Below are positions 4,326-26,652 of a stretch of DNA of 32,000 nucleotides, piece after piece. The position numbers and the translations under genes are program-made. Numbering within the stretch: position 1 is the first letter of the stretch; every line of letters begins with the position of its first letter. Below the pieces are notes generated by a model that did no database searches, was not told the origin of the DNA, and saw nothing but the letters and a program-made list of their open reading frames with translations. Source of the DNA: Halomicrobium mukohataei DSM 12286 (lineage in GTDB: Archaea; Halobacteriota; Halobacteria; Halobacteriales; Haloarculaceae); NCBI RefSeq assembly GCF_000023965.1, contig NC_013202.1, positions 2,370,001-2,402,000 on the forward strand, given 5' to 3'.

Positions 4326-4481
4326 TTCGTCTCGTTTTGCCGGGCGTCTACAGTGACGACCGAAGTGATTCACACCCGTCGCACTCTCCTGGGATCGGAG
4401 TTCACTGACTGTCACCGACGACTGTGACCGATCTCTCCGACCCGGGTGGTGACGCCCCCTGCGAACTGACGGCCGTCGGCA

Positions 4482-9287: not shown

Positions 9288-10186
9288 ATCTCGACGAACT
9301 CCAGTCAGTCCAGTCCCGCGAGCGCCAGACCGACAGCCTCCAGCAGCTGCGGGAGTCGTTCTACGCCGACGCGGGGGAGTTCATCCAGCAGCTCCGCGAG
9401 GAGCGCGACAGCGTGGCCGATCGGGCCGACGACCCCTTCGACGCCCCGGAAGTCAACCGCCTGACCGACGACATCAACACCGCCGAGTCGACGGTCGAAG
9501 CGATCTACGAGCGCCGCGTCGGCAAGATCGTCAAGATGGCGTCGCTGGCCGCCGCCGACATGCCGGCCGAAGAGGAGGGGCTGACCCGCGAGGAGCGGGA
9601 CCTCTTCGAGACGCTGGTTAGCGCCATCGAGAACAACCGCGATCACGTCTTCGACGTGCTCGCTGGCGACGTGACGCCGGACGCTGTCGAGGACGCGGGA
9701 GCCGACGAGAGCCCCACGGACGAGGTGTCGTCCGAGTCCGACGACGCCAAGCCGGAACCCGAGCCGGAGCCGCCCGCCGACCCCTCGCCGAGCGACGAGC
9801 CGACGACGATCGAAGCGGCCGACCTGATGGGCAGCGACGAGAGCGTCGACCTGCCGCCCGACGCGCCGCCGGACGGTCCGCCAGAGGGGGGTGCCAGCCG
9901 GGACGACCCGCTGGCCGGCGAGCAGTCGCCGGCCTCCGACGGCGGCACGGTACCCTCGCCCCCGTCCGACGACGCGGGGCCGACCTCGCCGGACGCGCCC
10001 GACACCGGCGACGAGCCGGCGACGCCGACGATCGAGCGCGCGACCGTCCGGATCACGGACGATGTCGGCGAGATCTTCGGGATCGACCAGCGCGAGTACG
10101 ACCTCTCGACCGACGATGTGGTCACGCTCCCCGAGCAAAACGCCGCGCCGCTGGTCGATCGGGACGCCGCCGAACGCCTCGACTGA
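9284..10186 (+). CDS. ginS: GINS complex subunit (Gins51-type) with a long acidic/proline-rich internal linker
   Basis: A helical A-domain (LQQLRESFYADAGEFIQQLREE...) is followed by a C-terminal B-domain (VRITDDVGEIFGIDQREYDLSTDDVVTLPEQNAAPLVDRDAA). It is translationally coupled to priS, as is known for archaeal Gins/PriS pairs. Confidence 0.85.
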   Translation: MNLDELQSVQSRERQTDSLQQLRESFYADAGEFIQQLREERDSVADRADDPFDAPEVNRLTDDINTAESTVEAIYERRVGKIVKMASLAAADMPAEEEGLTREERDLFETLVSAIENNRDHVFDVLAGDVTPDAVEDAGADESPTDEVSSESDDAKPEPEPEPPADPSPSDEPTTIEAADLMGSDESVDLPPDAPPDGPPEGGASRDDPLAGEQSPASDGGTVPSPPSDDAGPTSPDAPDTGDEPATPTIERATVRITDDVGEIFGIDQREYDLSTDDVVTLPEQNAAPLVDRDAAERLD

Positions 10187-10264
10187 GACGGAGTATCGTC
10201 GCCGTTTGCCAGGTCGACCGCACGCAGTCGTGCGGTCGATTCGGGAACGATCGACGAGTCCGTA
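10187..10264. repeat. 78-nt palindromic element, subfamily 1 (copy E)
   Basis: The outer arms are ACGGA..CGTCG / CGACG..TCCGT and the inner perfect arms are TCGACCGCACG / CGTGCGGTCGA (loop CAGT). It starts directly after the GINS TGA stop (10184-10186) and ends 3 nt before the htrA-like stop (10268-10270). Confidence 0.85.
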
Positions 10265-10267
10265 CGA

Positions 10268-11329
10268 CTATCTCTCCGGTCGCTCGCCCAGCGTGAGATC
10301 GACCGTCTCTCGGGATCCCTCGCGGAGTACGTCGACGGCGATCGTGTCGCCCGGCGTCGTCTCCAGTGCGAGAAACGAGGAGAGGTGTTGCCGGGAGGGA
10401 GTCGGGGTCTCGTCCATCGCCACGACCACGTCGCCGCCGACGCCGACTCTGACGCCGTTGACGACTTCTTCGCCGTTCGACGGCTCCAGGACGCCCTCGG
10501 CGGGTCCGTCCGTGACGACTTCGTCGATGTAGACGCCCTCGGCCGTCCGGAGGTCGTTTGCCTCGACGATCGGCGGCGTCAGATCGGTCAGCCGGACGCC
10601 GAGGTACGAGTGGTCGTAGGCCCCGGAGTCGATCAGCGACGGGACGACCCTGCGGGTGAGCGCCGCCGAGATGGCGAAGCCGATGTTGTCGCCCCCGCCG
10701 GAGTTGATGACGCCGACGACCGTCCCGTCGAGCGTGACCAGCGGGCCGCCGCTGTTGCCCGGATTGACCGCCGCGTCGGTCTGGACGGCGTCGGGGATCG
10801 AGAAGCCGTTCGCCGCCGGGAGCGTCCGGTCGACGCCGCTGACGATCCCGGCCGAGACCGAGCCCGAGAGCCCGAACGGGTTGCCGATGGCGACCACCTC
10901 CGTCCCGACGCCGGGGTCGGCCTCGACGAAGGACAGCGGCGTGGCACTCGCCGGTTTGTCGGTGACCTCGATGACGGCCAGATCGCTGTAGGCGTCGACG
11001 GCGACGACGGCGGACTCGATCCAGCCCGACTCGCGGTAGCGGACGTAGATCTCGTCGGCGTCACCGACGACGTGTTCGTTGGTCACGAGGTAGTCGTCGC
11101 TGTAGACGAACGCACTCCCCTGACCGCCGCGACTGTTCTCGGTGTACGTACGGACCGTCGCGACGGAGTCGACCACCTGCTCGTAGACGGCGCTGTAGCC
11201 GTCGCTGGCCGATTGCCCCTCGGAGCCGGCGGTCGCGTCCAGCGCGGGGGCCTGACAGCCCGCGACGCTGGCACCGACGGCCGCCGCCATCGAACCCAAC
11301 ACGCCACGACGCGTCTGCTGATCGTCCAT
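10268..11329 (-). CDS. trypsin-like serine protease (HtrA/DegP family, S1C) with PDZ-like C-terminus and Tat/lipobox signal
   Basis: It has a TRRGVLGSMAAAVGASVAGC signal and catalytic motifs (TNEHVV..., D...AVI, GNSGGPLV). A GTTTATTC box lies about 25 nt upstream of the ATG. Confidence 0.85.
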   Translation of the reverse strand: MDDQQTRRGVLGSMAAAVGASVAGCQAPALDATAGSEGQSASDGYSAVYEQVVDSVATVRTYTENSRGGQGSAFVYSDDYLVTNEHVVGDADEIYVRYRESGWIESAVVAVDAYSDLAVIEVTDKPASATPLSFVEADPGVGTEVVAIGNPFGLSGSVSAGIVSGVDRTLPAANGFSIPDAVQTDAAVNPGNSGGPLVTLDGTVVGVINSGGGDNIGFAISAALTRRVVPSLIDSGAYDHSYLGVRLTDLTPPIVEANDLRTAEGVYIDEVVTDGPAEGVLEPSNGEEVVNGVRVGVGGDVVVAMDETPTPSRQHLSSFLALETTPGDTIAVDVLREGSRETVDLTLGERPER

Positions 11330-11485
11330 GGGCGTACTATCGGCGGCGATCGAATAAACCCACGGCCAGACGACGTTTCACTCTCTGGGCGGTGGAGACA
11401 ACGGCCGCGCTGGGACGCCGCGAGTCTCAGACCTGTCGACGAAACGGACACAAGCTTGAGGTAGTGGTTTACCGTATCCGTAGCT

Positions 11486-11740
11486 ATGGCTGGATCTGGC
11501 GGCGAGCTGTCGGACGTTCCACATCCGCCGTTCCTGTTCGCCGGAATCAGGTGCGCACTGGAGATGATGCTCGTCGCGTCGCTGATACTGCTGCTTGGCT
11601 TGCCGGCCCAGAATCCGATCGTGCTCGCGGTCGTGGTGCTGCTCGCGTTCGTCGCGATGGTGGTCGTCCTGTTCTGGTGTCTCAACCAACAGATGGACCG
11701 CTGGATCAAACACGCACGGGGCAAGCCGACAGTTCAGTGA
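11486..11740 (+). CDS. hypothetical small membrane protein
   Basis: The 84-aa product has two long hydrophobic helices, an ATG start and GC3-rich codons. Confidence 0.5.
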   Translation: MAGSGGELSDVPHPPFLFAGIRCALEMMLVASLILLLGLPAQNPIVLAVVVLLAFVAMVVVLFWCLNQQMDRWIKHARGKPTVQ

Positions 11741-11807
11741 CGGGATCGCGCCGGGACCGTCCGACCAGTCACTAACCTTTTGAACGTCTCTCCAGTAGTA
11801 GTCGGCA

Positions 11808-12431
11808 ATGTCGACCAAGCGAGCGCTGGCCCAGCAACTCGGCGTGGTGGCAGGGTTCGACGATCCGCGAGCCCCGCTCGAACAGTATCGGACGCCGCCG
11901 GAGCTTGCGGCCCACCTGATCCACCTCGCCGACCTTCGGGGAGACATCGAAGATCGCACGATCGTCGACCTGGGCTGTGGGACCGGGATGCTGACGCTGG
12001 GCGCGGCGCTGCGTGGCCCCGAGCGAACCGTCGGGCTCGACGTCGATCCGGCACCGCTACAGACCGCTCGGGACAACGAGCGGAAGGTCGCGTCGGCCAC
12101 GTCGGTCTCCTGGGTCCGGGGCGACGCCGAGAACGCGCCGCTGCGACCGGATCGAGACGGGACGACGGTCGTGATGAATCCGCCGTTCGGGGCCCAGTCG
12201 GGCAACGAACACGCCGACCGGGCCTTCCTGGAGACGACGGCCGCGATCGCGGACGTTTCCTACTCGATTCACAACGAGGGCAGCCAGGAGTTCGTCGGCT
12301 CGTTTGCGGCGGACAACGGCGGCACCGTCACCGACTCCTACCAGACGGAGTTCGAGATCCCACACCAGTTCGACCACCACGAGGACGAGTCGCGAGCCGT
12401 CACCGCGGAAGTGTACCGGGTCGAGTGGTAG
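11808..12431 (+). CDS. METTL5/COG2263-like SAM-dependent methyltransferase (predicted RNA methylase)
   Basis: It has LEQYRTPPELAA, the SAM motif VDLGCGTGML, and the catalytic NPPFG. Confidence 0.85.
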   Translation: MSTKRALAQQLGVVAGFDDPRAPLEQYRTPPELAAHLIHLADLRGDIEDRTIVDLGCGTGMLTLGAALRGPERTVGLDVDPAPLQTARDNERKVASATSVSWVRGDAENAPLRPDRDGTTVVMNPPFGAQSGNEHADRAFLETTAAIADVSYSIHNEGSQEFVGSFAADNGGTVTDSYQTEFEIPHQFDHHEDESRAVTAEVYRVEW

Positions 12432-12439
12432 TCGCCGTT

Positions 12440-14122
12440 CTACGCCGCCTCGCGGGTCGCGATCGTAACTCGCGTCCCCTCGTCGCTCGCGAACACCTGC
12501 GAGCCGTTGCGCCGGAAGGTGAGCCCTCCAGCGGTTGTCGTCCGGTTCCGGCCGGGCACCGACGCGGTGGCGAGCGTACGGCCCTCTCTGGACACCGCGA
12601 AGGCGAACCCCCCGTCGGTCGGGACCAGCGTGACGTTCCGGCCGGCGACGACGGGGTCGGCTCGGCGCGGCTCGCTCGTGTAGCCACGCGTCCGCTCGTC
12701 GCCGGCCGGCCTGAGGTACACCTTGTAGACGCTGTCGTTGCCGGCCGGCCGCCAGCCCGTGCGGTTGACGTGGACGTTTCGCCGCCAGCCGACGCCGCCG
12801 ACCTCGACGGTCGCGAAACCGCGGTTCCGGAGCTGGGATTCGAGGACGACCGTCTGCCAGACGTGGCGTCGCTGGCTCGTGACGACGACGCCGCTGGTGT
12901 TGATCGCCGTCGGATCGTCGACGAACGGTAGGGAGACGCTCCGGACGTAGCCGTCGGGCACGTCTTCGCCGTAGCTGACGGTGTAGTCTCGGACTTCGAC
13001 CGTCGGCTGTGGGGCCGGCGAGTCGCCGATCGGCGCGACGTTGTACGGGATCGCCGCGCCGCTCAGTCCGAGCAAGAGGACGAGGACGACGGCCAGCCCC
13101 ACAGTGTGGACCCCTGCCGTCGATTCGGGCAGCCGGCGCTCGACGAGCCAGTCGAGTCGCGACCCGGCCCGCTCGTCGCCGTCCCAGATGCCGAGGATCA
13201 CGACCGCCGCCAGCACGAAGACGACCGCCGCGCCGAGCCACCGAAACAGGACGAATCGGCCGTTTCCTTCCGGGACGTACAGCGCCCACAGCCCCTGGAA
13301 CTCCGCGAACACGAGGAGCCCGAACCACAGCCGCGTCGGGTCCGGCCAGCGGTCCCGGTAGTACAGCAGGCCGAACCCGAGCAAGATGCCAGCGAAGAGC
13401 CCGATGGCGTGGCCCTGGATCGCGATGCTGGCCCACCACGGCGTGATGACGCGCGGACGCGGCACGGCGACGACGCGGGGGGTCTGGACCGCGACGACGA
13501 GGAATCCGAGGACCTGATCGGCCAGCAAGGCCAGCAGTGCCGTCAGCGGGCGCTGGACGAGTGCGAAGCCCGCGATGGCGAAGACGACTCCGGAGAACCC
13601 CACGACCGGTCCCAGTGCGAACAGCGACGTGAACAGCCCGACGACGAGCGCCCCGGCGGGAACGATCAGGATCCGGACGAACGGGTTCGTCAGGGCCGAT
13701 CCGAACGAGTGAGCGCCTCGCTTTCGGGGGTAGTGGCCCCAGGCGTACTCGGCGACGGAGCCGAACGCCGCCGTCGCCACGAGGTTGCCCGTCACGTGCC
13801 CGAGACTGGAGTGTGTGAACGCCGCCGTCACCATGCCCAGCGGGTAGCGATACGACCAGGATCGAAACGGGATCACCAGCGGATCTCTGGGGTCCTCGAT
13901 GCCGCCCTGGACGAACAGGTAGACGAGCGCGACCGCGCCGATTGTGAGCGCGGTGCCCCACGGAACGCCGAGCAACAGACGCCGACGGAGCGCGCCGAGT
14001 CGCCGATCCGTGCGGTCGCTGGCGACGAGCGCGACCCCCAGCGAGACCGCGGCGGCGAGGAGGACGGTCAGCGTCCTGAGGGGCAGCCACGACGGAACCG
14101 CATCCATCGGGCCCGGTAGCAT
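12440..14122 (-). CDS. rhomboid family intramembrane serine protease with a large C-terminal extension
   Basis: It has FTHSSLGHVTGN and the catalytic GFSGVVFA motif, a downstream His-containing helix, at least 7 TM helices, and an extra domain of about 250 aa. Confidence 0.85.
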   Translation of the reverse strand: MLPGPMDAVPSWLPLRTLTVLLAAAVSLGVALVASDRTDRRLGALRRRLLLGVPWGTALTIGAVALVYLFVQGGIEDPRDPLVIPFRSWSYRYPLGMVTAAFTHSSLGHVTGNLVATAAFGSVAEYAWGHYPRKRGAHSFGSALTNPFVRILIVPAGALVVGLFTSLFALGPVVGFSGVVFAIAGFALVQRPLTALLALLADQVLGFLVVAVQTPRVVAVPRPRVITPWWASIAIQGHAIGLFAGILLGFGLLYYRDRWPDPTRLWFGLLVFAEFQGLWALYVPEGNGRFVLFRWLGAAVVFVLAAVVILGIWDGDERAGSRLDWLVERRLPESTAGVHTVGLAVVLVLLLGLSGAAIPYNVAPIGDSPAPQPTVEVRDYTVSYGEDVPDGYVRSVSLPFVDDPTAINTSGVVVTSQRRHVWQTVVLESQLRNRGFATVEVGGVGWRRNVHVNRTGWRPAGNDSVYKVYLRPAGDERTRGYTSEPRRADPVVAGRNVTLVPTDGGFAFAVSREGRTLATASVPGRNRTTTAGGLTFRRNGSQVFASDEGTRVTIATREAA

Positions 14123-14176
14123 GTCCCGATCATGGAACGGCTGTGGCTTATCCTTGGCGGCGACGGGTCGGACTCA

Positions 14177-14256
14177 TACGGACGGTTGTAGGCGTTTACC
14201 CAGTCGACCGCACGACGGTGTGCGGTCGATCTGGTAACGACCTACAACTTTCCGTA
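14177..14256. repeat. 80-nt palindromic element, subfamily 1 (copy D)
   Basis: The outer arms are TACGGACGGTTGTAG / CTACAACTTTCCGTA and the inner arms are GTCGACCGCAC / GTGCGGTCGA plus TTACC / GGTAA. It is flanked by the direct triplets TCA (14174-14176) and TCA (14257-14259). Confidence 0.85.
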
Positions 14257-14284
14257 TCAGAAATCGGGTATCACTCTGTTACCT

Positions 14285-14308
14285 GGTTCGGAACCGAACC
14301 TATATATC
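14285..14308 (+). promoter_or_regulatory. perfect inverted repeat GGTTCGG-AA-CCGAACC abutting a TATATAT box upstream of hxlR
   Basis: The 7-bp arms with a 2-bp spacer occupy 14285-14300. They are followed immediately by TATATATC (14301-14308), which is about 38 nt upstream of the hxlR ATG. Confidence 0.55.
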
Positions 14309-14342
14309 TCGCTGGCGACAACGAGAGGGTAAGAGCCAACAG

Positions 14343-14699
14343 ATGTCATCCACGTTTTCCCCGGAGCCAGACGAGACCTGCCAGGTCGTCGAGTCCTTCG
14401 ACCTGATCGGATCGAAGTGGCGACTGGCGGTGCTGTACGAACTGCTCGACGGCGAACAGCGGTTCAACGAACTCAAGCGAGAGACCGGCACCAGTTCCCG
14501 CACGCTCTCGCGGGTCCTCGACGACCTGCAGGACCGCGCCTTCGTCGACCGTCGCGTCGAGGAGGCTGCACCGGTCGCGACCTACTACACGCTGACCGAG
14601 AAGGGCGAGGCGCTCGCACCGGTGTTCGACGAGATCGGCGACTGGGCCGACGAGTGGCTCGACGACGCCGTCGCGACGCCGGAGATCGAGACGCAGTGA
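14343..14699 (+). CDS. HxlR family winged-helix transcriptional regulator
   Basis: The stretch IGSKWRLAVLYELLDGEQRFNELKRETGTSSRTLSRVLDDLQDRAFVDRR is a typical HxlR/MarR-like wHTH. Confidence 0.9.
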   Translation: MSSTFSPEPDETCQVVESFDLIGSKWRLAVLYELLDGEQRFNELKRETGTSSRTLSRVLDDLQDRAFVDRRVEEAAPVATYYTLTEKGEALAPVFDEIGDWADEWLDDAVATPEIETQ

Positions 14700-14777
14700 C
14701 GCGGATCGTGTAGCGGTTTCCCGATAGTCGTCTCTCCCGTGGCGACGCTCGCCAGCACGCACCTTCGGTAATGCGTA
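14700..14777. repeat. 78-nt diverged palindromic element, subfamily 1 (copy G)
   Basis: It aligns along its length with copy B1 (..GGAT.C.TGTAGC.GTTTCCCG.T...CGTGGCGACG.T.GCC...GCACC...CGTA). It starts directly after the hxlR TGA (14697-14699) and is followed by TGA (14778-14780). The arms are partly decayed. Confidence 0.65.
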
Positions 14778-14837
14778 TGACACGAGTACGGTCCGACAGC
14801 GTAGCTTTTTCCACCTGCAAGTACCACTGTCGACTCG

Positions 14838-15167
14838 ATGGGAGTCCGGCCACCGGCAGACGACGACGGCGACGAACCGGACGCGATCGAGTTCGGTATC
14901 GCCGCGCTCGACGGAACACTGAGCGACGCCGATATCGAGTACCCGACCGACAAACAGACGCTCCGGTCCGAGATCGGGCACCGCGAGGTCCCTTTCGACG
15001 CCACGGGCCACTCGATCACGGTCGCGGAGGCGCTCGAACAGGTACCGAAGACGAGCTTCGAGAACGAGCAGGAACTGCTCAACACCCTCCACCCGGTGTT
15101 CGAGGCCCGACGCGAAGCCACGAGCAACAGTCTCCTCTCGCAGCTTCGGGCGCTGGTCCCCTTCTAG
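14838..15167 (+). CDS. conserved-looking acidic hypothetical protein
   Basis: The 109-aa product has acidic composition and good codon bias. A CTTTTTCC box lies about 30 nt upstream. I cannot name a family with confidence. Confidence 0.6.
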   Translation: MGVRPPADDDGDEPDAIEFGIAALDGTLSDADIEYPTDKQTLRSEIGHREVPFDATGHSITVAEALEQVPKTSFENEQELLNTLHPVFEARREATSNSLLSQLRALVPF

Positions 15168-16198: not shown

Positions 16199-16241
16199 TG
16201 TTGACCAGTCGACTGCGCGGACTCAAATATATACTGGTGGG

Positions 16242-17792: not shown

Positions 17793-17839
17793 GCCAGCTA
17801 GTGGGCACGACACCGCTTCAATCCTCTGGCGGCCGAGCC

Positions 17840-18272
17840 GGTAGTGTTCAGATAAGAGATCGAGAGTAGCATCGTCGAGGCACCGAAAGCCCTCGTGCAG
17901 TTGCGGTCCCGCGGCTCGCTGCGCGCGCTCCGCGTGCTTGCCGAGAGGGACTCTCCGAGTCCCTCTGGCCGTGCGAACGGGCGCTTTGCGCCCGTGAGCA
18001 GACTTTGCCGGGGTTCCCGCAAGGGCCGGCCGGTGGACCCGGCCGGCTATAACGTGACGGCTCCGCCGTCACGCAGCACTCGCCCTTTCATCCGCCAAGT
18101 TTCAGACGGTGAACCAGCCGATTCCTGGTGGATGAAAGGGCGAGGTGCGGTCGGCGGTTCTGCGGCGGCACTATCGAACGCAGTGAAGATATCCGCCACA
18201 GAACCGCCGAGCGTGCCGAGGGCTTTCGGTGTCTATATGTCAGTCAGTGCTGCTGCTTATCTGAACACCGCC
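17840..18272. mobile_element. 433-bp non-coding MITE-like element: 17-bp imperfect TIRs, 8-bp target-site duplication, highly structured interior
   Basis: The left TIR is GGTAGTGTTCAGATAAG (17840-17856). The reverse complement of the right TIR is GGCGGTGTTCAGATAAG (18256-18272), a 15/17 match with 13 contiguous. The direct repeats GCCGAGCC at 17832-17839 and 18273-18280 abut both ends. No plausible ORF is present, since the internal ORFs are Arg/Ser/Pro-rich. Confidence 0.7.
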
Positions 18273-18319
18273 GCCGAGCCCTGGCCACCGCGGTCGTCAC
18301 GAACGCGCGGCCGACGGCG

Positions 18320-19366
18320 TCACCAGGTGCCGTGGAAGGTGTCGAAGGCGAGTTCCTCCAGGTCCTCCTCGCCGATTGCGATGCGGTACTCCTGGGGCGT
18401 CAGCATCGGCTTCTTGAACTGCGGGCCGTCGTCGGTCGTGATCCGCGGGCACCCCGTGTTGACGTAGGCGTCCATCCCGAAGTTCGTCAGTCGATCCGGC
18501 GTCACCTCGTCCATCGTGATGAGGTAGGCGTCGTCGTTGTTCTCGACGATCTCGGTCGCCTGGTCCCAGCGACCCTGTCCGATCTTCGTACAGAAGATGA
18601 CGCCCCACCGCTCGGCGTCCATCGCCTTGTGGACCGAGGCGTACCGCTGTTTCATGAACTTCTCCGTGTCGGCGACGTGGACGGCGTTGTTGACCGGATC
18701 GGCGATGACGACCTTCTTGTCGGGGTGTTCCATCGCCAGCCCGAGCGGGTGGAACTTGCCACCGCCGACGTAGAGGATCTGGTCGGCGTCGACCTCGGCG
18801 CTGGCGTAGTTGCACCCGAGCACCTGTCCCTCGTGGGTCAGTCGCTCGTCGCCCTTGCGGGTGTGGACCTCGTAGTCGCGTTCTTCGAGCCAGCCGCGCA
18901 TCTCGTCGAACTTGTTCATGTGCTGGGCCGTCGTCACGAGCCCGACCTCGGGGTCCTCGTCGGGAGCGGGAAGCTCCGATTCGAGGGCCTGCTCCATGAT
19001 CGGGAACACGTCGACGTTCGAGAACAGCGGCACGTAGATGATCTTGTCCGACTCCTTCATCGGGGAGTGGCCGAAGTGAACGAACACGTCGGTCCGGCGC
19101 ATCAGGTACGTGTCCAGGTCGCAGGCACCGTAACAGGGCTGGCCCGAGATCATCACCTGCGTGTCGTCTGGCAGTTCGTCCCGAAGGTCGTCGGCGACGG
19201 CTGGTCCGCGGCGCTTCAGCCCTTCCGGGAACTGGAGGCCGACGGTCTCTGCGTCGCGGTCGGCGACTTCCTCGACGATGCGGTCGAGTTCGTAGTCCCA
19301 CTCGCGGTCGTGCTTGAGAGCGAGCCCAGTCGCCCGGAGATCCCCCTCGCTGCGGTCCTGACTCAT
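18320..19366 (-). CDS. dph2: diphthamide synthesis radical-SAM enzyme Dph2 (2-(3-amino-3-carboxypropyl)histidine synthase)
   Basis: The product has Dph1/Dph2-family sequence throughout (GLQFPEGLKRRGP...SGQPCYGACD...FVHFGHSPM...GCNYASA...VNTGCPRI). I moved the start to MSQDRSEG (19366) because the TTGTTATAC box lies inside the first codons of the longer track ORF. Confidence 0.9.
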   Translation of the reverse strand: MSQDRSEGDLRATGLALKHDREWDYELDRIVEEVADRDAETVGLQFPEGLKRRGPAVADDLRDELPDDTQVMISGQPCYGACDLDTYLMRRTDVFVHFGHSPMKESDKIIYVPLFSNVDVFPIMEQALESELPAPDEDPEVGLVTTAQHMNKFDEMRGWLEERDYEVHTRKGDERLTHEGQVLGCNYASAEVDADQILYVGGGKFHPLGLAMEHPDKKVVIADPVNNAVHVADTEKFMKQRYASVHKAMDAERWGVIFCTKIGQGRWDQATEIVENNDDAYLITMDEVTPDRLTNFGMDAYVNTGCPRITTDDGPQFKKPMLTPQEYRIAIGEEDLEELAFDTFHGTW

Positions 19367-19390
19367 TGGACCGCCGTAGCGCCTCGGCGC

Positions 19391-19399
19391 GTATAACAA
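19391..19399 (-). promoter_or_regulatory. TATA-like box (TTGTTATAC on the minus strand) for a leaderless dph2 transcript
   Basis: This AT-rich 9-mer is centred about 29 nt upstream of the ATG at 19366. Confidence 0.45.
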
Positions 19400-19447
19400 G
19401 CGCGCTTCCAGACGGTATCCCCGGCCACACGGACACAGCCCCGCTCG

Positions 19448-19524
19448 GACGACCCGCTGTCCGTTCGTCGCCGCGTTCGCTACTCGTGGTGGCGAGACGT
19501 GTGACAGACGGACAGCGTCCCGTA
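19448..19524. repeat. 77-nt palindromic element, subfamily 2 (copy I, diverged)
   Basis: It has 10-bp arms CGCTGTCCGT (19455-19464) / ACGGACAGCG (19508-19517). It aligns with copy B2 (CTGTCC.GT.CGT...CG.TTCGC.AC.CG.TG.TGGCGA...ACAG..GGACAG) and is the same 77-nt length as B2 and C. Confidence 0.65.
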
Positions 19525-19602
19525 CGAAGTATCGTAGATCGTTACCGGATCGATCTCACGATGGCGTGGGCTCGACCGGACAGACGGCGACGACACTCCG
19601 CC

Positions 19603-19737
19603 TCAGGACTCGTCGAGGAGAAGCTCCTGTGTGGCGTCGTCGACCGACGCCAGTCGATCCGCGATCCGGTCACCGAACGCGACGAATCCGAAGGCCAGAA
19701 CGGCGAGCATCGCGCCACCGACGAGTGTCAATGCCAT
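19603..19737 (-). CDS. possible 44-aa small membrane protein (below the ORF-track length cut-off)
   Basis: It translates to MALTLVGGAMLAVLAFGFVAFGDRIADRLASVDDATQELLLDES: one hydrophobic helix plus an acidic tail, with an ATG start and GC3-rich codons. Confidence 0.4.
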   Translation of the reverse strand: MALTLVGGAMLAVLAFGFVAFGDRIADRLASVDDATQELLLDES

Positions 19738-19825
19738 ACACTGGCTTACCGCTCTACCCCCAAAAGCCTGCTCCCCCGGTGGCGGTTCGGCAACTCTTTA
19801 GGCGGCCAGCACCAAGGACGGAGAG

Positions 19826-20224
19826 ATGAGCATCGAGTCCGAGACCTCCGATTCGGCCGTCGACAGCCACGTCGAAGAGATCGCCGCCGAGTTCGGCGAC
19901 GCGATCACACAGCTACCGGTGTACCAGCGCTTCGCCGAAGCCAAAACGGCCGTCGAGAACGACGAACAGGCCCAGGAGAAGATCGAGGAGTTCGAGTCCA
20001 TTCGCGAGGAGTTCATGCTCGCACGCCAGACCGGACAGGCCGACCAGGAAGCGCTCAGAGAGCTCCAGGCCGCACAGGAAGAGCTCCACGACCTGCCGGT
20101 GATGAGCGAGTACCTCGAAGTGCAGAGCGAACTCGAACTGCGTCTGCAGGAACTCAACGAAGTCGTCTCCGAGCAGCTCGTCGTCGACTTCGGCGAGAAG
20201 GCCGGCGGCTGCTGCGAGGACTGA
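19826..20224 (+). CDS. YlbF/YmcA-like helical protein with C-terminal Cys-Cys
   Basis: The 132-aa product is an acidic helical protein (PVYQRFAEAKTAVENDEQAQEKIEEFESIREEF...) that resembles the YlbF family. It ends in GGCCED. Confidence 0.6.
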   Translation: MSIESETSDSAVDSHVEEIAAEFGDAITQLPVYQRFAEAKTAVENDEQAQEKIEEFESIREEFMLARQTGQADQEALRELQAAQEELHDLPVMSEYLEVQSELELRLQELNEVVSEQLVVDFGEKAGGCCED

Positions 20225-20303
20225 TACGGTTTCTTGTAGTTGCTTACCGGTGATCGTCGCCACGGAGTAGACGATCACCGGTAAATCGCTACAATAATCC
20301 GTA
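20225..20303. repeat. 79-nt palindromic element, subfamily 1 (copy A, best preserved)
   Basis: The outer arms TACGGTTTCTTGTAG / CTACAATAATCCGTA pair at 13 of 15 positions. The inner arms TTACCGGTGATCGTC / GACGATCACCGGTAA pair at 15 of 15, with an 11-nt loop. It is flanked by TGA (20222-20224, the stop codon of the upstream gene) and TGA (20304-20306). Confidence 0.9.
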
Positions 20304-20649
20304 TGACGCCGCGGCTCGCGATCGTGTCGCTGCTTTCTTCGCGGAGTGACGACGGCGACCGACGGCCGGCGAGTAGCGCGTCGGCGGGCCGCCAGTATCG
20401 TCGGCTGGTCCCGGTGTCGTCGTCCGAAGTCTGCCGCCATTCGTGCTATCAGAGTCTGAAATGGGGCGCGAAGGTCGCTGCTACTGGCGTTCGTCGGGGG
20501 CGTCGCGAACAGCCACTCCCCGGGCCACAGGTGGGCTTGAGGCGTCTGGAAACCGCCACAGTTCCCGAATACAGAACCTGATAATTCGGCGCGTAGTCTT
20601 ATTACCGAGTAGTGGCCACCGGTAGACAAGCGGAGCGAGTACTATTCAA

Positions 20650-21321
20650 ATGCAACAGAGTTGGCAACGCGACCGAGCGGGTGACCGCGGTCAGGTCGGG
20701 ATCGGGACGCTGATCGTGTTCATCGCGATGGTCCTCGTCGCGGCGATCGCGGCGGGCGTACTGATCAACACCGCGGGCTTTCTCCAGACGAACGCAGAAC
20801 AGAGCGGCCAACAGAGCAGCCAACAGGTGACCAACCGCCTCCAGGTCGTCGACATCGCCGGGTCTGACATCGTGAAAGACGGCGAGGGCTTCGAGGTGAC
20901 GACGGTCGACGTGACCGTCAAGCGAGCGCCGGGCTCGGGCAACGTGGACCTGTCGACGACGACCGCCCAGTGGGTCTCGTCGGGCGGCAGCTACAACGTC
21001 CTCAGCTACACGGCGGCCGAGGGATCGGGCGGATCAAGTGGTGACGCCGGGTTCATCACGTCGACGCTGCAGGACGACGACGGCTCGATCTCGAACAGCA
21101 ACGCCCTCAACGACCAGGCCGACCGGGCGATCATCAGATTCCAGACCGACTCGGTTCCCACCAGCGAAGAGGAAGACGACCTGAACGGGAAGCTCGTCAG
21201 CGGGGACCTCACCGAGGGATCGTCCGCCGAGATCAGGCTGACCACCCAGGCCGGCGGCGAGACGACCGCCACGGTCGTCGTGCCCGAGTCTCTCTCGGGC
21301 AAGTCCGCCGTCTCGCTCTAG
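20650..21321 (+). CDS. archaellin (archaeal flagellin)
   Basis: It has the hallmark N-terminus [34 protein letters not shown], followed by a Ser/Thr/Gly/Asp-rich variable domain. Confidence 0.9.
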
Positions 21322-21373
21322 GCCGTCGCCCGCTTTCGCAAGGACTTAGCGGCCGCTCGCGACACGTTCAACC

Positions 21374-22207
21374 ATGACTGTCGACTCCGACTGGGGCGAC
21401 TGGCTCGTTCGCGCGGTCGAAGACGCGGATCCCGACGGACTCGCGATCTGGTACCTCGGCTGTAACGGCTTCGTACTCAAGTCCAGCGGCGGCTCGGTCG
21501 TCTACGTCGACCCGTATCTGGGTATCGGCGATCCGCCACGGACGGTCCGGATGATCCCCGTCCCGTTCGATCCCGACGACGTGCGCGAGGCGGACGCGGT
21601 CCTCGCGACCCACGAACACACGGATCACACGCACGGGCCGAGCCAGGCACCGATCCTCGCCGGTACGGGAGCCACGTTCTACGGCACCGACGCGAGCCAC
21701 GACGTGGTCTCGGCCGAAAACTGGACCGAGACGTGGGACGTCGACGACGAACAGCTCCGCGAGATCGGCGAAGGGGACACCTTCGAGGTCGGTGATCTCA
21801 CCGTCCACGTCGAACCCGCCAACGATCCCGACGCCGACCACCCCGTCTCGTACGTCTTCGAACACGACGCGGGGACGTTCTTCCACGGCGGCGACGCACG
21901 GCCCGGCGCGTTCGAGTCCGTCGGCGAGTCCTACGACATCGACGTGGGCGTCCTCGCGTTCGGTACCGTCGGGATGATCCCCGACAAGGAGACCCGCGAA
22001 CCCGAACGCACGAAGTGGTACAACGACGAGAACATGATCGTCGAAGCCGCGAACGAACTCCAGCTCGAGACGCTCGTCCCGACCCACTGGGACATGTGGA
22101 AGGGCATGACGACGGAGCCGACGGTGCTGCACAACCACGTCAACAGCTTCCCCGCACCGGCGATCCTCGACATCGTCGAGATCGGCGATCGGATCGACCT
22201 GGAGTGA
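21374..22207 (+). CDS. MBL-fold metallo-hydrolase (UlaG-like)
   Basis: It has the HEHTDHTHG (HxHxDH) motif and downstream His/Asp ligands. Confidence 0.85.
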   Translation: MTVDSDWGDWLVRAVEDADPDGLAIWYLGCNGFVLKSSGGSVVYVDPYLGIGDPPRTVRMIPVPFDPDDVREADAVLATHEHTDHTHGPSQAPILAGTGATFYGTDASHDVVSAENWTETWDVDDEQLREIGEGDTFEVGDLTVHVEPANDPDADHPVSYVFEHDAGTFFHGGDARPGAFESVGESYDIDVGVLAFGTVGMIPDKETREPERTKWYNDENMIVEAANELQLETLVPTHWDMWKGMTTEPTVLHNHVNSFPAPAILDIVEIGDRIDLE

Positions 22208-22247
22208 ACTGACAGTTCAAAGAAGTAATAAGGCAGGCAATACGTAT

Positions 22248-22257
22248 CTTTAATATT
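22248..22257 (+). promoter_or_regulatory. TATA-like box CTTTAATATT for the 22280 gene
   Basis: This is the most AT-rich stretch of the intergenic region, centred about 28 nt upstream of the ATG at 22280. Confidence 0.45.
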
Positions 22258-22279
22258 CTCGCTCGACGCTATTCGAGAC

Positions 22280-23470
22280 ATGAGTGACTCTCAGGCGTAC
22301 GAGGAGATTACCGTGGTCTCTGATGGGGTGACCGTCACCAAACGGTACGAGGCCGACGAGTTCCCGGTGCCTGCCATCGCGTTCAAGTTCGCGTCCAGCC
22401 GGACCGAACCGGTGAGCGTGCGGCTGACCGACGTGGTTCCGGAGGACGTGGCAGTCGAGGATCTGGGCTTTCACCCGGAGTACGGGAGCGAGTTCTGGAC
22501 GATCGACGACGACGAGATCGCCTTCGAGCGTGAACTCGAACCCGAATCGGAGTACACGACGGTGTACGGAATCCGCGCGACCGGCACCGACAACGTCGAG
22601 CAGTTCCTCACCGAACCACAGATCGACCGCATCGACCCGCCGCTGGAAGACGACGGGGGCGAACTCGTCGGCGAAGGATCCGACGCTGTCAAAGACGTGA
22701 TCAGCGGCGACGCCGACAGCGTTCCGGGGCTCGAAGAGTCCGACGACGAGGACATCGAGACCCTCGACCTGAAGGATCCGAACAACGAGGGCCAGCAGCG
22801 CCGTGCCGCCGAACGCACTCCCGAGGAGACGGACGGCGACGCCGAGGAGGCGTCCGAGGACGGATCGGCCCAGCAGGCGGCGAACAACGGGACTGCGAGC
22901 AGCGTCGAAGTCGAGGGCGGGAGTCTCGTCGCCGCGATGGCGAACGAACTCCGGAACAACGAGGTCCGGAAAGAGGACGTCCAGATCCTCCGGAAGGCCT
23001 TCGACCTCGCGAGCGACGACGGCTCCGTGACGGCCCGGCTCGACAAGCTCCAGAAAGACGTCTCCGACGTCGTCGCGTACACCGACGCACTCGAAGAGTT
23101 CCTCGACGAGAACGGCACCGGCGAACAGCTCATCGACGAGTTCGAGTCCGAGGTCGAGCAGTTCCGCTCCGAAGTCGAGGAGTTCGAGTCCGAACTGGCA
23201 TCGGTCAAGTCGACGGCCGCCGAGAACGGCGCTCAGATCGACGGACTCGCCGACGGAGTCGAGCAGATCGACGAGAGTGTCGACGACGTGACAGACGACG
23301 TATCGGAGCTGGAGTCGACCCTCGACGGCGTCCAGGACGACCTCGAAGAGATCCGCGAGGAGATGGCCGATGCGGGCGTCGAGAGCCAGATCGAAGAGAT
23401 CGACGAGGAGATTGCCGAGCTCAAAGAGTGGCGCGAACAGCTCTCGTCGGTCATCGGTGGCGGCGACTGA
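22280..23470 (+). CDS. very acidic protein: about 120-aa N-terminal globular domain, low-complexity acidic linker, long C-terminal coiled coil
   Basis: The 396-aa product has strong codon bias. Heptad-like repeats (EFESEVEQFRSEVEEFESELASV...LESTLDGVQDDLEEIREEM) are present. I recognised no family. Confidence 0.75.
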   Translation: MSDSQAYEEITVVSDGVTVTKRYEADEFPVPAIAFKFASSRTEPVSVRLTDVVPEDVAVEDLGFHPEYGSEFWTIDDDEIAFERELEPESEYTTVYGIRATGTDNVEQFLTEPQIDRIDPPLEDDGGELVGEGSDAVKDVISGDADSVPGLEESDDEDIETLDLKDPNNEGQQRRAAERTPEETDGDAEEASEDGSAQQAANNGTASSVEVEGGSLVAAMANELRNNEVRKEDVQILRKAFDLASDDGSVTARLDKLQKDVSDVVAYTDALEEFLDENGTGEQLIDEFESEVEQFRSEVEEFESELASVKSTAAENGAQIDGLADGVEQIDESVDDVTDDVSELESTLDGVQDDLEEIREEMADAGVESQIEEIDEEIAELKEWREQLSSVIGGGD

Positions 23471-23579
23471 CGCGACCGGTCGCGTCCCGCCCACTCCGGG
23501 GCAGAGATATGTCGACACGGAGACACTCGCCCGTGTGAAACCGGACTCGTTTTACTCCCCCATCGTCTGTGCCATCGTA

Positions 23580-24476
23580 ATGACGACGATCAGCGTGGCC
23601 GTTCCACGCAAGGGTCGCCCGCTGGAGGCCGTGCTCGAACGGCTGGCGACGACGGCAGCGTTCACCGAGATCGCCGACGACGTGATCTCGACGCTGCGCT
23701 ACGAGAAGGCCATCACGAAGGACGACGCCACACCCGACGCGCCGGTGTACGATCGTCTCGCGGCGTACAGCGACCTCGACGACCCGACCAGACCCGAGTA
23801 CACGCTCTTGCGAGACGACCGCGAGGGGATGCCCCGACGCGTCGTCTTCGACAGCCTGACGGTCCCGGTCGACGGGATCGACCTGCGTCTGGTCGGTCGA
23901 GAGGAGCCGTTTCGGTCGCTGCGCAAACACGAGTTCGCGCTGGGCTTCGACAGTGCCGACCTCGTCCTCGAAGAGGTCGTGCAGCTGCGGGACGATCCCC
24001 TGACCGAGATCGCGGCCATCAACGAGCGGATCGATCCGGTCGACACGGACGTTCGCGTCGTCACCGGGATGGGTGATACGGTGTATCACACGCTGCTCGG
24101 AACGCCAGCGGTGCGCAAGTCGCTCCCACACGATCTCTCCCGCGAGTTTCTCTCGGCCTACGAGGGCGATCTCTGTATCTCGCCGCGCTACGAGCGGCTG
24201 GTCGAGGCCGTCATCGGCACGGACGCCCTGCGAGACATCGAGTTCGTCTACCCCGAGAACGGACGGGAAGAGGAGGCCGCCATCGCCGAGGCCGGGCTGG
24301 GCGTCTACCTCACCGTGACCGGTTCGACCGCCCGCGACCACGGGCTCGAACTGGGAGAGCAGCTGTTCCCCAGCGAGACTGTCCTGCTGGAGAACCGCTC
24401 GGAGGTCGGCGACGGCGTCGATCGGGTCACGGAGCTGTTCGCTGCGCCCGACGAGTCCGTCCTGGCGCTCCAGTAG
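23580..24476 (+). CDS. HisG-like protein (ATP phosphoribosyltransferase fold paralog, no C-terminal regulatory domain)
   Basis: The N-terminus ISVAVPRKGRPLEAVLERL and the loop YLTVTGSTARDHGLELGEQLFPSETVLLEN resemble HisG motifs. The ATG at 23580 lies about 27 nt downstream of GTTTTACT. The upstream part of the track ORF overlaps the previous gene. Confidence 0.55.
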   Translation: MTTISVAVPRKGRPLEAVLERLATTAAFTEIADDVISTLRYEKAITKDDATPDAPVYDRLAAYSDLDDPTRPEYTLLRDDREGMPRRVVFDSLTVPVDGIDLRLVGREEPFRSLRKHEFALGFDSADLVLEEVVQLRDDPLTEIAAINERIDPVDTDVRVVTGMGDTVYHTLLGTPAVRKSLPHDLSREFLSAYEGDLCISPRYERLVEAVIGTDALRDIEFVYPENGREEEAAIAEAGLGVYLTVTGSTARDHGLELGEQLFPSETVLLENRSEVGDGVDRVTELFAAPDESVLALQ

Positions 24477-24609
24477 CGGTCCCGCGGTGACATCGGTGTC
24501 AGCACAGACCTTTGACCCTCGGCGACCTACGTCGCCGTATCCGTCACCGCGACGGCACCACCATGTCACGACACAGAACCACGCCGACACGGACAGCCGG
24601 GGCCGACAG

Positions 24610-25254
24610 ATGAGTGAGCCACACGCCGACCAGCCGGTCCACACCGCGGGCACGCCGCTGGACGACGCCAGCGTCGCCGTCGTGATGATCCACGGCCGCG
24701 GAGCCAGAGCCGAGGGATTTCTCCAGCTCGCAGACGAGATCGCCGTCGACGGCGTCGCGTATCTCGCACCGCAGGCACAGCGCGGGAGCTGGTACCCCAA
24801 CCGTTTCGTCGACCCGATCGAGAGCAACGAGCCACACCTCACCGCCGCACTCGGCGTCGTCGCGGACACGATCGAAAGAGCCCTCGCAGCGGGCCTCGAC
24901 CACGAACAGATCGTCCTGATGGGGTTCTCTCAGGGTGCCTGTCTCGCCAGCGAGTACGTCGCCCGGAACCCCCGCGCGTACGGTGGACTCGCCGCCTTCA
25001 GCGGCGGACTCATCGGACCGCTCGGGATGGCGTTCGACCACGACGGGGAACTCGACGGGATGCCGGCCTTCTTCGGCTGTAGCGACTCCGATCCGCACAT
25101 TCCGGAGACTCGCGTCACCGAGTCTGCGGACGTGTTCGAGCGCCTCGGAGCCACCGTCGAGACGCGACTCTACGAGGGCATGGGCCACACGATCGTCGAC
25201 GACGAGGTCGAGTACGTCGTCGATCTGCTGTCGACGCTGACGGGTTCGGACTGA
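24610..25254 (+). CDS. phospholipase/carboxylesterase family alpha/beta hydrolase
   Basis: It has the GFSQGA nucleophile elbow, a downstream D and H (GMGHTI), and VVMIHGRGA. I chose the start at MSEPHADQP (24610). Confidence 0.85.
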   Translation: MSEPHADQPVHTAGTPLDDASVAVVMIHGRGARAEGFLQLADEIAVDGVAYLAPQAQRGSWYPNRFVDPIESNEPHLTAALGVVADTIERALAAGLDHEQIVLMGFSQGACLASEYVARNPRAYGGLAAFSGGLIGPLGMAFDHDGELDGMPAFFGCSDSDPHIPETRVTESADVFERLGATVETRLYEGMGHTIVDDEVEYVVDLLSTLTGSD

Positions 25255-25329
25255 TACGGATTCTCGTAGCAGTTTCCCGGTGATCACCTCGTGGCGACGA
25301 TTGCCGGTGAGCACCTACGAGAGTCCGTA
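25255..25329. repeat. 75-nt palindromic element, subfamily 1 (copy B1)
   Basis: The outer arms TACGGATTCTCGTAG / CTACGAGAGTCCGTA form 15 pairs including one G.U. The core is related to copy A in inverted order. It is flanked by TGA (25252-25254, the esterase stop) and TGA (25330-25332). Confidence 0.85.
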
Positions 25330-25332
25330 TGA

Positions 25333-25409
25333 TACTGTCGACTGTCCCGTCGTGAAGCGATTCGCCACCCGGTGTGGCGAAATCGATCACAGTGGGACAG
25401 CCGGCGGTA
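25333..25409. repeat. 77-nt palindromic element, subfamily 2 (copy B2)
   Basis: The paired arms are CTGTCCC / GGGACAG, GTGA / TCAC, CGATT / AATCG and CGCCA / TGGCG. It starts directly after the TGA that also flanks B1. Confidence 0.8.
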
Positions 25410-25502
25410 CGACACCGCCGGTGAGATTCTCACCGGGCGGGAACGATCCCGCACCGGTGACCAACGTCACTTATCCGTCTCGAACGCCTTGTCTCAACTC
25501 GA

Positions 25503-26510
25503 ATGCTGTCAGACGAGTTCGGTCGCGAGGTCTCGGGCGTCCGCGTCTCGCTGACCGATCGGTGTAACTTCGACTGCGTCTACTGCCACAACGAGGGGCT
25601 GGGAGACACGCGCGGCCCACTGGCGGCCCAGGACGACGAGCTCTCGACGGACCGGGTCGTCGACTTCCTCGAAGTGGCCGCGGACCTCGGCGTCGACTCG
25701 GTGAAGTTCACCGGCGGGGAACCGCTGCTCAGAGAGGACCTCGCCGAGATCGTCGAGCGGACGCCCGACGAGATGGCGGTGTCCCTGACGACGAACGGGA
25801 CCTACCTTCCCGGGCGAGCGTCCGAACTCGTCGACGCCGGACTCGAACGAGTCAACATCTCCCAGGACGCACTCGACCGGGAGGCGTTCGCCGAACTCAC
25901 CCAGAGTGGCGCGTACGACCGCGTGCTGGAGGGCGTCGAGGCGGCGGTCGACGCCGGACTCGCCCCGGTGAAGATCAACATGGTGGTGTTCGAGCCGACG
26001 GCGGGGTACGTTCCGGAGATGGTCGATCACGTCGTCGAGAACGAGGGGCTTCGCCTCCAGCTCATCGAGTACATGCCCGAGTTGGCCGGCCATCCGGAGT
26101 GGGCGATCGACATCGATCGCGTCCACGACTGGCTGTCCGAACGGGCCGACCGGATCGAGCACCGCCAGATGCACGACCGGCGGCGGTACTTCGTCGCGAG
26201 CGACGACGGCGACCGCGAGGGGATGGTCGAGATCGTCGACCCGGTGGGCAACGAGACGTTCTGTGCGAACTGCCACCGGGTGCGACTCACCCACGACGGC
26301 TACCTGAAGGGCTGTCTGAACCGCAACGACGACCTCCGGTCGATCGGCGAGACGAAGTCTCGCATGCGCGATGCGTTCCGGGCGACCGTGGCCAGCCGCG
26401 TCCCCTACTACGGCGAGTACATGGTCGAGACCGAGGACGGCTGGGAACGCGACGAGCGGTACCGCGACGGGGAGGGCGACCGCGCCCCCTACGCCTACAC
26501 CGAGGACTGA
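25503..26510 (+). CDS. moaA: GTP 3',8-cyclase MoaA (radical SAM, molybdenum cofactor biosynthesis)
   Basis: It has the CNFDCVYC radical-SAM cluster motif, a C-terminal [18 protein letters not shown] second-cluster motif, and FTGGEPLLR. Confidence 0.95.
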
Positions 26511-26587
26511 TACGGGCGGTCGTCGGAATCTCCCCGCTTTCGCCGCCCTGGGAGGCGAATCGATTCACGACGGGACAGCCGACGGTA
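26511..26587. repeat. 77-nt palindromic element, subfamily 2 (copy C)
   Basis: One arm (reverse complement TACCGTCGGCTGTCCCGTCGTGAATCGATTCGCCTCCC.GG) matches B2 at about 47 of 52 positions, while the other arm is decayed. It starts directly after the moaA TGA (26508-26510) and is followed by TCA. Confidence 0.8.
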
Positions 26588-26652
26588 TCACGTGCCCCGT
26601 CGCGGCCTCGCGAAGTCGTGGCTTTTTGCCCTCCGGCGGCCTGTGTTCGAGT

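Follow-up and report, generated by a model that had tools for sequence, protein, structure and literature searches.

The locus and its nine hairpins

We examined a 32-kb window of Halomicrobium mukohataei DSM 12286 (contig NC_013202.1, positions 2,370,001 to 2,402,000; coordinates are those of the window, and sequences fetched for comparison carry L numbers) in which nine copies of a palindromic element are dispersed. The window has a G+C content of 62-71%, with about 0.85 at third codon positions (GC3), and its genes include the archaeal housekeeping genes for PriS, Gins51, diphthamide synthase, archaellin, MoaA and MoeA. By an exact match of its YlbF-family protein, recorded as 'MULTISPECIES ... 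[Halomicrobium]', 9826-30224 of the window is also placed on the 3.09-Mb chromosome CP045142.1 (GCA_009217585.1). We propose, with a probability of roughly 85%, that the hairpins are haloarchaeal MITEs (miniature transposable elements with inverted repeats) that insert at TGA or TCA, duplicate this triplet, and often do so on TGA stop codons without damage to the gene.

A preliminary description of this DNA had reported eight such hairpins. All eight were found by direct inspection where it had placed them, with the termini, lengths and stem variants it gave, but its total was one short, as leave-one-out nhmmer within the window revealed an overlooked ninth copy at 19523-19602 (E = 2e-9). Among the eight, the same procedure gave significant scores only for copies 14177, 20225, 25255 and 26511 and a weak one for 25333. 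Its division into two subfamilies stands as far as it goes, while the first of these splits further: an alignment of the 18 arms separates types A (10187, 14177, 19523), B (14700, 20225, 25255) and C (19448, 25333, 26511). Each element consists of a short loop between two terminal inverted repeats, either of them about 35 bp long, so that each copy reads as a hairpin of 75-80 bp; lengths range over 64-81 bp and there is no coding capacity. The ends of types A and B read TACGG-N4-TTGTAG-N4-TTACC, with CTACAA-N4-CCGTA closing the other arm. Type C begins with TACTGCCGGCTGTAAC and has the consensus TACTGCCGGCTGTAACTTCGTGAAGATCTTCGCCACCCCGGGGTGGCGAAATCGTTCACAGATTTACAGCCGGCAGTA; TACTGCCGGCTGTA is the alternative to TACGG-N4-TTGTAG as an inverted-end signature.

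All nine copies were detected by profile hidden Markov models (HMMs) built from other genomes, with E-values from 3e-20 to 7e-4. The values below are from the A/B model for types A and B and from the C model for type C, and folding is expressed as z relative to dinucleotide shuffles. The type A copy at 10187-10264 is old and degenerate (terminus GACGG; flanks TGA and CGA; z −5.4; E = 8e-5). It lies directly 3' of the TGA stop (10184-10186) of a Gins51-like gene and ends 3 nt short of the stop codon of a convergent HtrA-like gene. The young type A copy at 14177-14256 (z −8.95; E = 1e-15) has a perfect TCA duplication (14174-14176 and 14257-14259) and occupies the divergent promoter region between a rhomboid gene (minus strand) and an HxlR gene (plus strand), where no stop codon is involved. 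Directly 3' of the TGA stop of this HxlR-family gene is the type B copy at 14700-14777, which is decayed, with a CGCGG terminus and its hairpin lost (z −0.17; E = 7e-4), although TGA flanks it on both sides (14697-14699 and 14778-14780). Two copies are stacked upstream of the diphthamide synthase gene (minus strand): a member of the sister family, type C, with degenerate termini at 19448-19524 (z −5.2; E = 6e-6), and the type A copy at 19523-19602, which is closest to 10187 (E = 9e-7) and, read on the minus strand, immediately follows the TGA stop (19603-19605) that ends a conserved open reading frame (ORF) of 44 amino acids (19603-19737, minus strand).

The young type B copy at 20225-20303 (z −7.9; E = 3e-20) differs by one mismatch from the commonest Halomicrobium katesii sequence and is flanked by a perfect TGA duplication (20222-20224 and 20304-20306), the first triplet being the stop codon of a YlbF-family gene. 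Another type B copy, 25255-25329 (z −6.65; E = 1e-11), lies between TGA triplets at 25252-25254, the stop of a carboxylesterase-like gene, and 25330-25332. On the latter, duplicated TGA is stacked the type C copy at 25333-25409 (right flank CGA; z −5.8; E = 5e-13). The last copy, 26511-26587, is type C with a decayed or hybrid left arm (z 0.05), and only its right half is matched (E = 7.5e-5); it lies directly 3' of the MoaA TGA stop (26508-26510), with TCA on its right and a native T-run terminator-like site after it (26599-26632). Thus six of the nine copies start at the first base after a TGA stop (Gins51, HxlR, the 44-amino-acid ORF, YlbF, the carboxylesterase-like gene and MoaA) and two more (19448 and 25333) are stacked directly on stop-abutting copies. 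Identical triplets flank four: TGA at 14700, 20225 and 25255, and TCA at 14177.

Two further segments were considered. The truncated remnant suspected earlier at 11443-11482 did not bear examination, as no HMM matched it at E ≤ 5 and it folds no better than shuffles (z −0.7). A second, weak candidate, 4419-4479, was non-significant over the models tried, with E-values of 0.03-0.6 (the type C model gave 0.12). The 44-amino-acid ORF that lies between the genes for diphthamide synthase and YlbF is hydrophobic and was called in all fetched relatives but L007 (H. urmianum); it has no Pfam match on record and is likely a real small membrane protein.

Distribution in haloarchaea

A species-representative genome collection, held in bins of up to 8 kb, was scanned with the self-complementary pattern TACGGNNNNTNGTAGN{30,60}CTACNANNNNCCGTA, for which no chance match is expected in the window and three real ones occur. 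At least 120 genome bins matched, from 15 genomes or metagenome-assembled genomes (MAGs), and all were from Halobacteria among the matches listed; our arithmetic estimate of chance matches over the whole collection is about 30. The listed bins came from H. katesii (61), Salinadaptatus halalkaliphilus (10), five MAGs named 'Halobacteriales archaeon' QS_ or QH_ (29), four Haloarcula species (10), a Natronococcus MAG (4), a Natrialbaceae MAG (3), Halorhabdus amylolytica (2) and Natrialba chahannaoensis (1). The family is spread over at least two haloarchaeal families. Haloarchaeal plasmids hold more copies and more subfamilies, for example with CTGTAA replacing TTGTAG, and the same pattern had no match in viral contigs.

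The density of copies by HMM varies: there are nine in the 32-kb window and 18 in the 222-kb plasmid of H. mukohataei JP60, while the 61 H. katesii bins have at least 104 and 73 kb of metagenomic relatives only three. The earlier claim of a genuine, dense, multi-copy family of intergenic palindromes is thus borne out by hundreds more copies in Halobacteria with significant external HMM E-values, and the genome scan it had called for did find copies beyond the window. Its remark that it did not recognise a named repeat family here also agrees with our searches, which found no name in Rfam or the searchable literature.

A 3-bp target-site duplication and empty sites

The flanks of the pattern-defined elements were then compared. 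A perfect 3-bp direct repeat flanks 129 of 139 (93%) of them in the 15 genomes and MAGs, among the matches listed. The triplets are TGA/TGA in 70 cases, TCA/TCA in 58 and TTA/TTA in one; ten are imperfect, including one TCA/TGA. Since the middle base co-varies on both sides, the triplet belongs to the target rather than to the element. As the pattern needs two intact arms, the 93% figure applies to young copies. Type C elements show the same TGA and TCA duplications. That the triplets merely extend the palindrome is ruled out because they are direct rather than inverted repeats (128 direct versus the one TCA/TGA).

Orthologous loci of relatives were fetched through YlbF protein homologues, the closest being L008 (92% protein identity). 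At the position of copy 14177, L008 reads GGCGAC TGATTACTC TCA GAAATCGGGTATCA, that is, GGCTTATCCTTGACGGCGACTGATTACTC-TCA-GAAATCGGGTATCA with a single TCA, while the window has GGTCGGAC-TCA-[14177-14256]-TCA-GAAATCGGGTATCA. A classic empty site is thereby shown, three bases being duplicated where the element is present. At the YlbF stop the sequence is likewise GGAC-TGA-CGC in L008 and GGAC-TGA-[element]-TGA-CGC in the window, so that copy 20225 is absent from this relative. L008 also lacks both elements (19448-19602) between the 44-amino-acid ORF and the diphthamide synthase gene, and L003-L005 lack 25255 and 25333, the two elements upstream of moaA. No H. katesii bin was orthologous to the window, and a comparison of katesii and mukohataei plasmids gave no clean empty site. 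Two other readings of the junctions were rejected. A TA duplication of the IS630/mariner kind, suggested by the TA at both tips, predicts TGATATGA at the empty site, where L008 has a single TCA or TGA. At the YlbF and MoaA genes, GGAC is not part of the element, as GAC is the native last codon of both in relatives; it reflects target preference instead.

When the target was reconstructed and oriented as TGA, the favored bases (percentage of sites) were G57 A52 C77 before the triplet and G60 A45 C55 after it, giving an intrinsic target of about GAC|TGA|GA(C/G) with a CTSAG core, in which S is G or C. The same preference was seen at 49 insertions away from stop codons, which makes it a feature of how the elements insert and not of coding sequence. 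Arrays re-use the duplicated triplet, as in TCA[element]TCA[element]TCA in L092 and in the pair 25255/25333 of the window. In L021 (4262-4360), a type C element is nested within one of type A/B, where it occupies a TTA triplet; one element can thus serve as target for another, and TTA is used occasionally.

The sequence upstream of copy 25255 has features of its own. The carboxylesterase-like gene ends LTGSD* in the window (25235-25254) and LADSG* in relatives (L003 16762-16781), and the 16 nt preceding this copy (GACGGGTTCGGACTGA) are similar to those preceding copy 14177 (GACGGGTCGGACTCA). Either the target preference reaches further upstream or insertion remodelled the last codons.

Association with stop codons

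When elements were removed in silico, 65 of 127 insertions proved to be on the TGA stop of a long ORF with high GC3, 49 were not and 13 were unclear. For comparison, among the T(G/C)A sites of these bins that carry no element, stops are a small minority, with 419 sites versus 5176 at intergenic non-stop positions. The last codon was GAC in 32% of the genes hit, compared with 14% of TGA-ending genes overall. Of the 18 elements on the JP60 plasmid (RefSeq annotation), nine abut a stop of a coding sequence (CDS) exactly and two more probably do. About half of the insertions thus abut a TGA stop exactly, and the duplication regenerates the stop.

Folding and the question of RNA function

Folded as RNA, seven of the nine window copies were far better than their dinucleotide shuffles (z −5.2 to −8.95), and 14700 and 26511 were near zero. 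The subfamilies carry unrelated distal stems, every one of them self-complementary, for example GGTGATCGTC/GACGATCACC, CAGTCGACCGCACG/CGTGCGGTCGATCTG, GGTATGTGCCGACC/GGTCGGCACAATCC and GGCGATTGCGG/GGCGATCGCC. Over 26 representatives, 92.4% of stem cells are paired, compared with only 25-45% in slid controls. Double changes occur at 12 of the 23 stem pairs and amount to 65 cells, versus 22 ± 3 in shuffles (none of 500 reached this number). A GTAG/CTAC tetranucleotide is conserved in both arms, with GTAG internal at positions 12-15, and elements are inserted in both orientations relative to TGA.

Such strong compensatory variation, which maintains the hairpin, could mean that the elements function above all as RNA or DNA structures, for instance as 3'-untranslated region (UTR) stabilisers, terminators or protein-binding hairpins, which selection keeps at gene ends, mobility being secondary. 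Consistent with this, half of the copies lie directly after stops and upstream of native T-runs, so that they are probably transcribed into 3' UTRs. In the window, copies 20225 and 26511 are each followed by T-run terminator-like sequence, so that both are in the presumed 3' UTR, with the stop codon before them and the terminator after. However, in the mRNA sense strand of stop-associated copies, G·U mismatches (108) do not exceed A·C mismatches (106), and there is thus no sign of selection at the RNA level; a role of the hairpins as transcribed 3' UTR ends, hinted at in the preliminary description, lacks support as a selected function. None of the nine copies was called as an intrinsic terminator: their right flanks are TGA, TCA or CGA followed by GC-rich sequence, with no T-run tail. 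Rfam 15 gave no match in the window at gathering score, nor were there any tRNAs. Copies also occur in divergent promoter regions (14177), presence and absence differ among close relatives, and old copies decay (14700, 26511). The paired changes are accounted for by descent from master copies with long inverted ends. We consider it improbable that function as a structure is primary.

Instead, the equal numbers of G·U and A·C mismatches, the insertion in either orientation and the decay of old copies lead us to read the elements as DNA symmetry. We infer that the hairpin is the signature of two long inverted transposase-binding ends, derived from different master copies, rather than a selected RNA structure. 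Individual copies may nevertheless have been exapted.

Weighing transposition against other origins

Palindromes after gene ends are also known from proteobacteria, where repetitive extragenic palindromes (REPs) and the REPIN hairpins are moved by the RAYT transposase, an HUH enzyme resembling that of IS200/IS605, acting on single-stranded hairpins. The HUH mechanisms of RAYT and IS200/IS605 are not known to produce a target duplication. Like REPs, our elements are long extragenic hairpins, clustered after gene ends, with GTAG/CTAC in each arm, and REP ends reportedly provide the ORFs beside them with stop codons (PMC3733652), which we count in favor of this origin. It is nonetheless very unlikely, given the 3-bp duplication in 93% of elements with its co-varying middle base, the empty site with a single TCA, the position of GTAG at 12-15 rather than at the tip, and the occurrence of both orientations relative to TGA. 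Lastly, chance or compositional similarity of GC-rich palindromes in a 66% GC genome is refuted, even though two window copies fold no better than shuffles and three failed leave-one-out nhmmer, by three pattern matches in the window where none is expected, by at least 120 matching bins, all haloarchaeal among the matches listed, and by HMM E-values down to 3e-20.

The MITE reading agrees with what was found throughout: the elements are short and non-coding, have terminal inverted repeats and a duplication of fixed length, and are dispersed in multiple copies over many genomes, with empty sites in relatives. The earlier reading of the hairpins was incomplete rather than wrong, as their transposon nature, the 3-bp duplication and the start of copies right after stops had gone unrecognized. 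Several points weigh against our own reading. Only four of the nine window copies keep a perfect duplication. The stop-codon statistics of the scanned bins come from a crude gene caller based on ORFs and GC3, and the ratio of stops to non-stops among unoccupied sites is accordingly approximate. The target is not fully palindromic, A being preferred at both −2 and +2, which is not what a symmetric transposase dimer would lead one to expect. Finally, a search of 1.3 Mb of fetched loci and of the 222-kb H. mukohataei plasmid (NZ_CP039376.1) turned up no autonomous element bounded by such ends.

A model for insertion and the search for a parent element

As the elements encode nothing, they would be mobilised in trans by a transposase. 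A fixed short duplication implies a staggered double-strand cut with gap repair and is a hallmark of DDE transposases. In our model, the enzyme would make a cut with a 3-bp stagger at T(G/C)A within the extended target, and repair of the stagger would duplicate the triplet. Since in these genomes TGA is the main stop and GAC (Asp) the commonest last codon, gene ends make good targets, and because the left duplicate regenerates the stop, insertion there is harmless. Insertions at other TGA or TCA sites inside genes would presumably be purged by selection. The new TGA would be open to further insertion, leading to stacked arrays, and the paired changes would arise if every subfamily descended from its own master copy with long inverted ends.

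From the type of target, the enzyme could be a DDE transposase of the IS5 (IS1031-like) or PIF/Harbinger kind, to which we give rather less than even odds. The candidates for a parent were all rejected. Arms that occurred singly belonged to MITEs with mutations or truncations, and long TACGG...CCGTA pairs were separate neighboring MITEs. Unrelated ends were found in ISHma10, which lies beside a pNG400 copy, in the IS5-like element at L119 1162-2097 (terminal inverted repeat GGCCTTGTTTAGA) and in an IS5-like gene in L135; a 1046-bp IS1595-like element and the IS1595 and TnpB genes of the plasmid were also unrelated. More tentatively still, we suggest an orphan system in which an intrinsic 9-bp target coincides with the commonest haloarchaeal gene ending. 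It would be a stop-codon-homing, safe-haven transposon of at least two families, whose transposase would be of a kind not so far linked to any described insertion sequence of halophiles (ISH) and some copies of which may have been co-opted as 3'-UTR structures.

Other repeats in the window and its relatives

The segment 18079-18227 forms two adjacent long hairpins (z −7.0) that share the motif CTCGCCCTTTC / GAAAGGGCGAG / GAGGGCTTTC. Its halves recur in several copies, 77-92% identical, in H. katesii bins L087, L085, L090, L083, L092, L037, L039, L070 and L034, and it gave no significant Rfam match. It represents another palindromic repeat family, about 150 bp long and unrelated to the nine copies. 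Metagenomic Halomicrobium-like sequences have other GC-rich hairpin repeats (L003 10399-10720, L004 10399-10480, L005 10399-10640) at the place downstream of YlbF that copy 20225 occupies in the window; among their motifs are GAGGGACC...GGTCCCTC and GTGAGCG...ACACGCGAGCAGCGAG. H. katesii also has a classical MITE of 141 bp (L016 6793-6933) with the terminal inverted repeat GGCCTTGTTTAGA and an 8-bp duplication, GAACAGTC; the element at L119 mentioned above has the same ends and is its full IS5-like parent. At L035 7876, a copy of this GGCCTTGTTTAGA family interrupts a TACGG-type MITE.

Implications

With 8-28 copies per 100 kb in the sampled sequence, the elements make up a sizeable share of Halomicrobium intergenic DNA. 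They offer a natural case of targeting to harmless sites, as the T(G/C)A duplication restores the TGA stop in half of the insertions. Dozens to hundreds of genes gain a hairpin of −40 to −54 kcal/mol from the first base after the stop, with possible effects on termination, read-through and mRNA stability in haloarchaea. Sites of presence or absence are potential strain markers for Halomicrobium, Haloarcula and Natrialbaceae. The copies also give rise to spurious ORFs: a called ORF of 87 amino acids spans copy 14177, and a RefSeq 'hypothetical protein' CDS (L133 44428-44628) runs into another copy (L133 44583-44661). The public short-read contig SRR017869_111 (2 kb) is identical to 18244-20250 of the window and stops 26 nt inside copy 20225; this end suggests an assembly break at the repeat and that hairpin repeats fragment short-read assemblies.

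Relation to known systems

Known haloarchaeal MITEs (ISH2, the MITEHsal series and HqIRS of Haloquadratum) and the repeats called SMRs are transposase-free, mobilised in trans and variable among strains (PMC7002104, PMC3119063), and the present family has in common with them that it is a transposase-free mobile repeat of Halobacteria. Those MITEs are linked to a parent ISH by shared ends and have longer duplications, for example 5 bp (AGTTT) or 7 bp (TATGACA) (PMC7002104, PMC3119063), whereas ours duplicate the 3-bp TSA and have a stop-codon habit that is not mentioned in these two papers. The SMRs of Haloquadratum are about 110 bp long, with inverted ends and a strong target preference but no duplication (PMC3119063), and PATEs and other IS200/IS605 derivatives have subterminal palindromes, no terminal inverted repeats and no duplication (PMC3119063). 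The duplication thus sets our elements apart from SMRs, and both duplication and terminal inverted repeats set them apart from PATEs.

REP, REPIN and BIME sequences resemble our family in that they are extragenic palindromes, numerous behind gene ends, that contain GTAG and come in several types per genome; their ends can touch stop codons (PMC3733652). They differ in that REPs are 20-40 nt long with a GTAG or CGTC tag at the tip, are tied to RAYT HUH transposases and are not known to be flanked by a duplication, which 93% of our elements have. Correia/NEMIS and ERIC elements are likewise about 100 bp long, mostly inverted repeat and co-transcribed with their neighbors, with short sequence-specific duplications. 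Correia elements duplicate TA, in contrast to TSA here, and these elements have other hosts and no sequence relation to ours.

The nearest likeness is to Tourist-like MITEs with PIF/Harbinger and to the IS1031 subgroup of IS5, with which our family shares small non-coding elements with terminal inverted repeats in high copy number, as well as a 3-bp T-N-A duplication in an extended, near-palindromic target with a C-T-N-A-G core. PIF targets CWCTTAGWG, and elements of the IS1031 group duplicate TNA. Here the triplet is TSA, with C at −1 (77%), G at +1 (60%), G at −3 (57%) and C at +3 (55%), and with positions −2 and +2 asymmetric. The differences are that the central base is G or C and not A or T, that the host is archaeal, that the element is nearly all inverted repeat, and that its ends (TACGG... 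and TACTGCC...) match no IS5-like element in the fetched DNA. We found no account in the literature searched of this family or of any TSA-duplicating, stop-associated haloarchaeal MITE; ISfinder was not compared, so a name may already exist. A bulk MITE-Tracker census reported 251 uncharacterised MITEs in a Haloarculaceae MAG (PMC11602168) and probably contains such elements anonymously. By comparison with all of these systems, the family is of the MITE type, with an unusually clean target habit.

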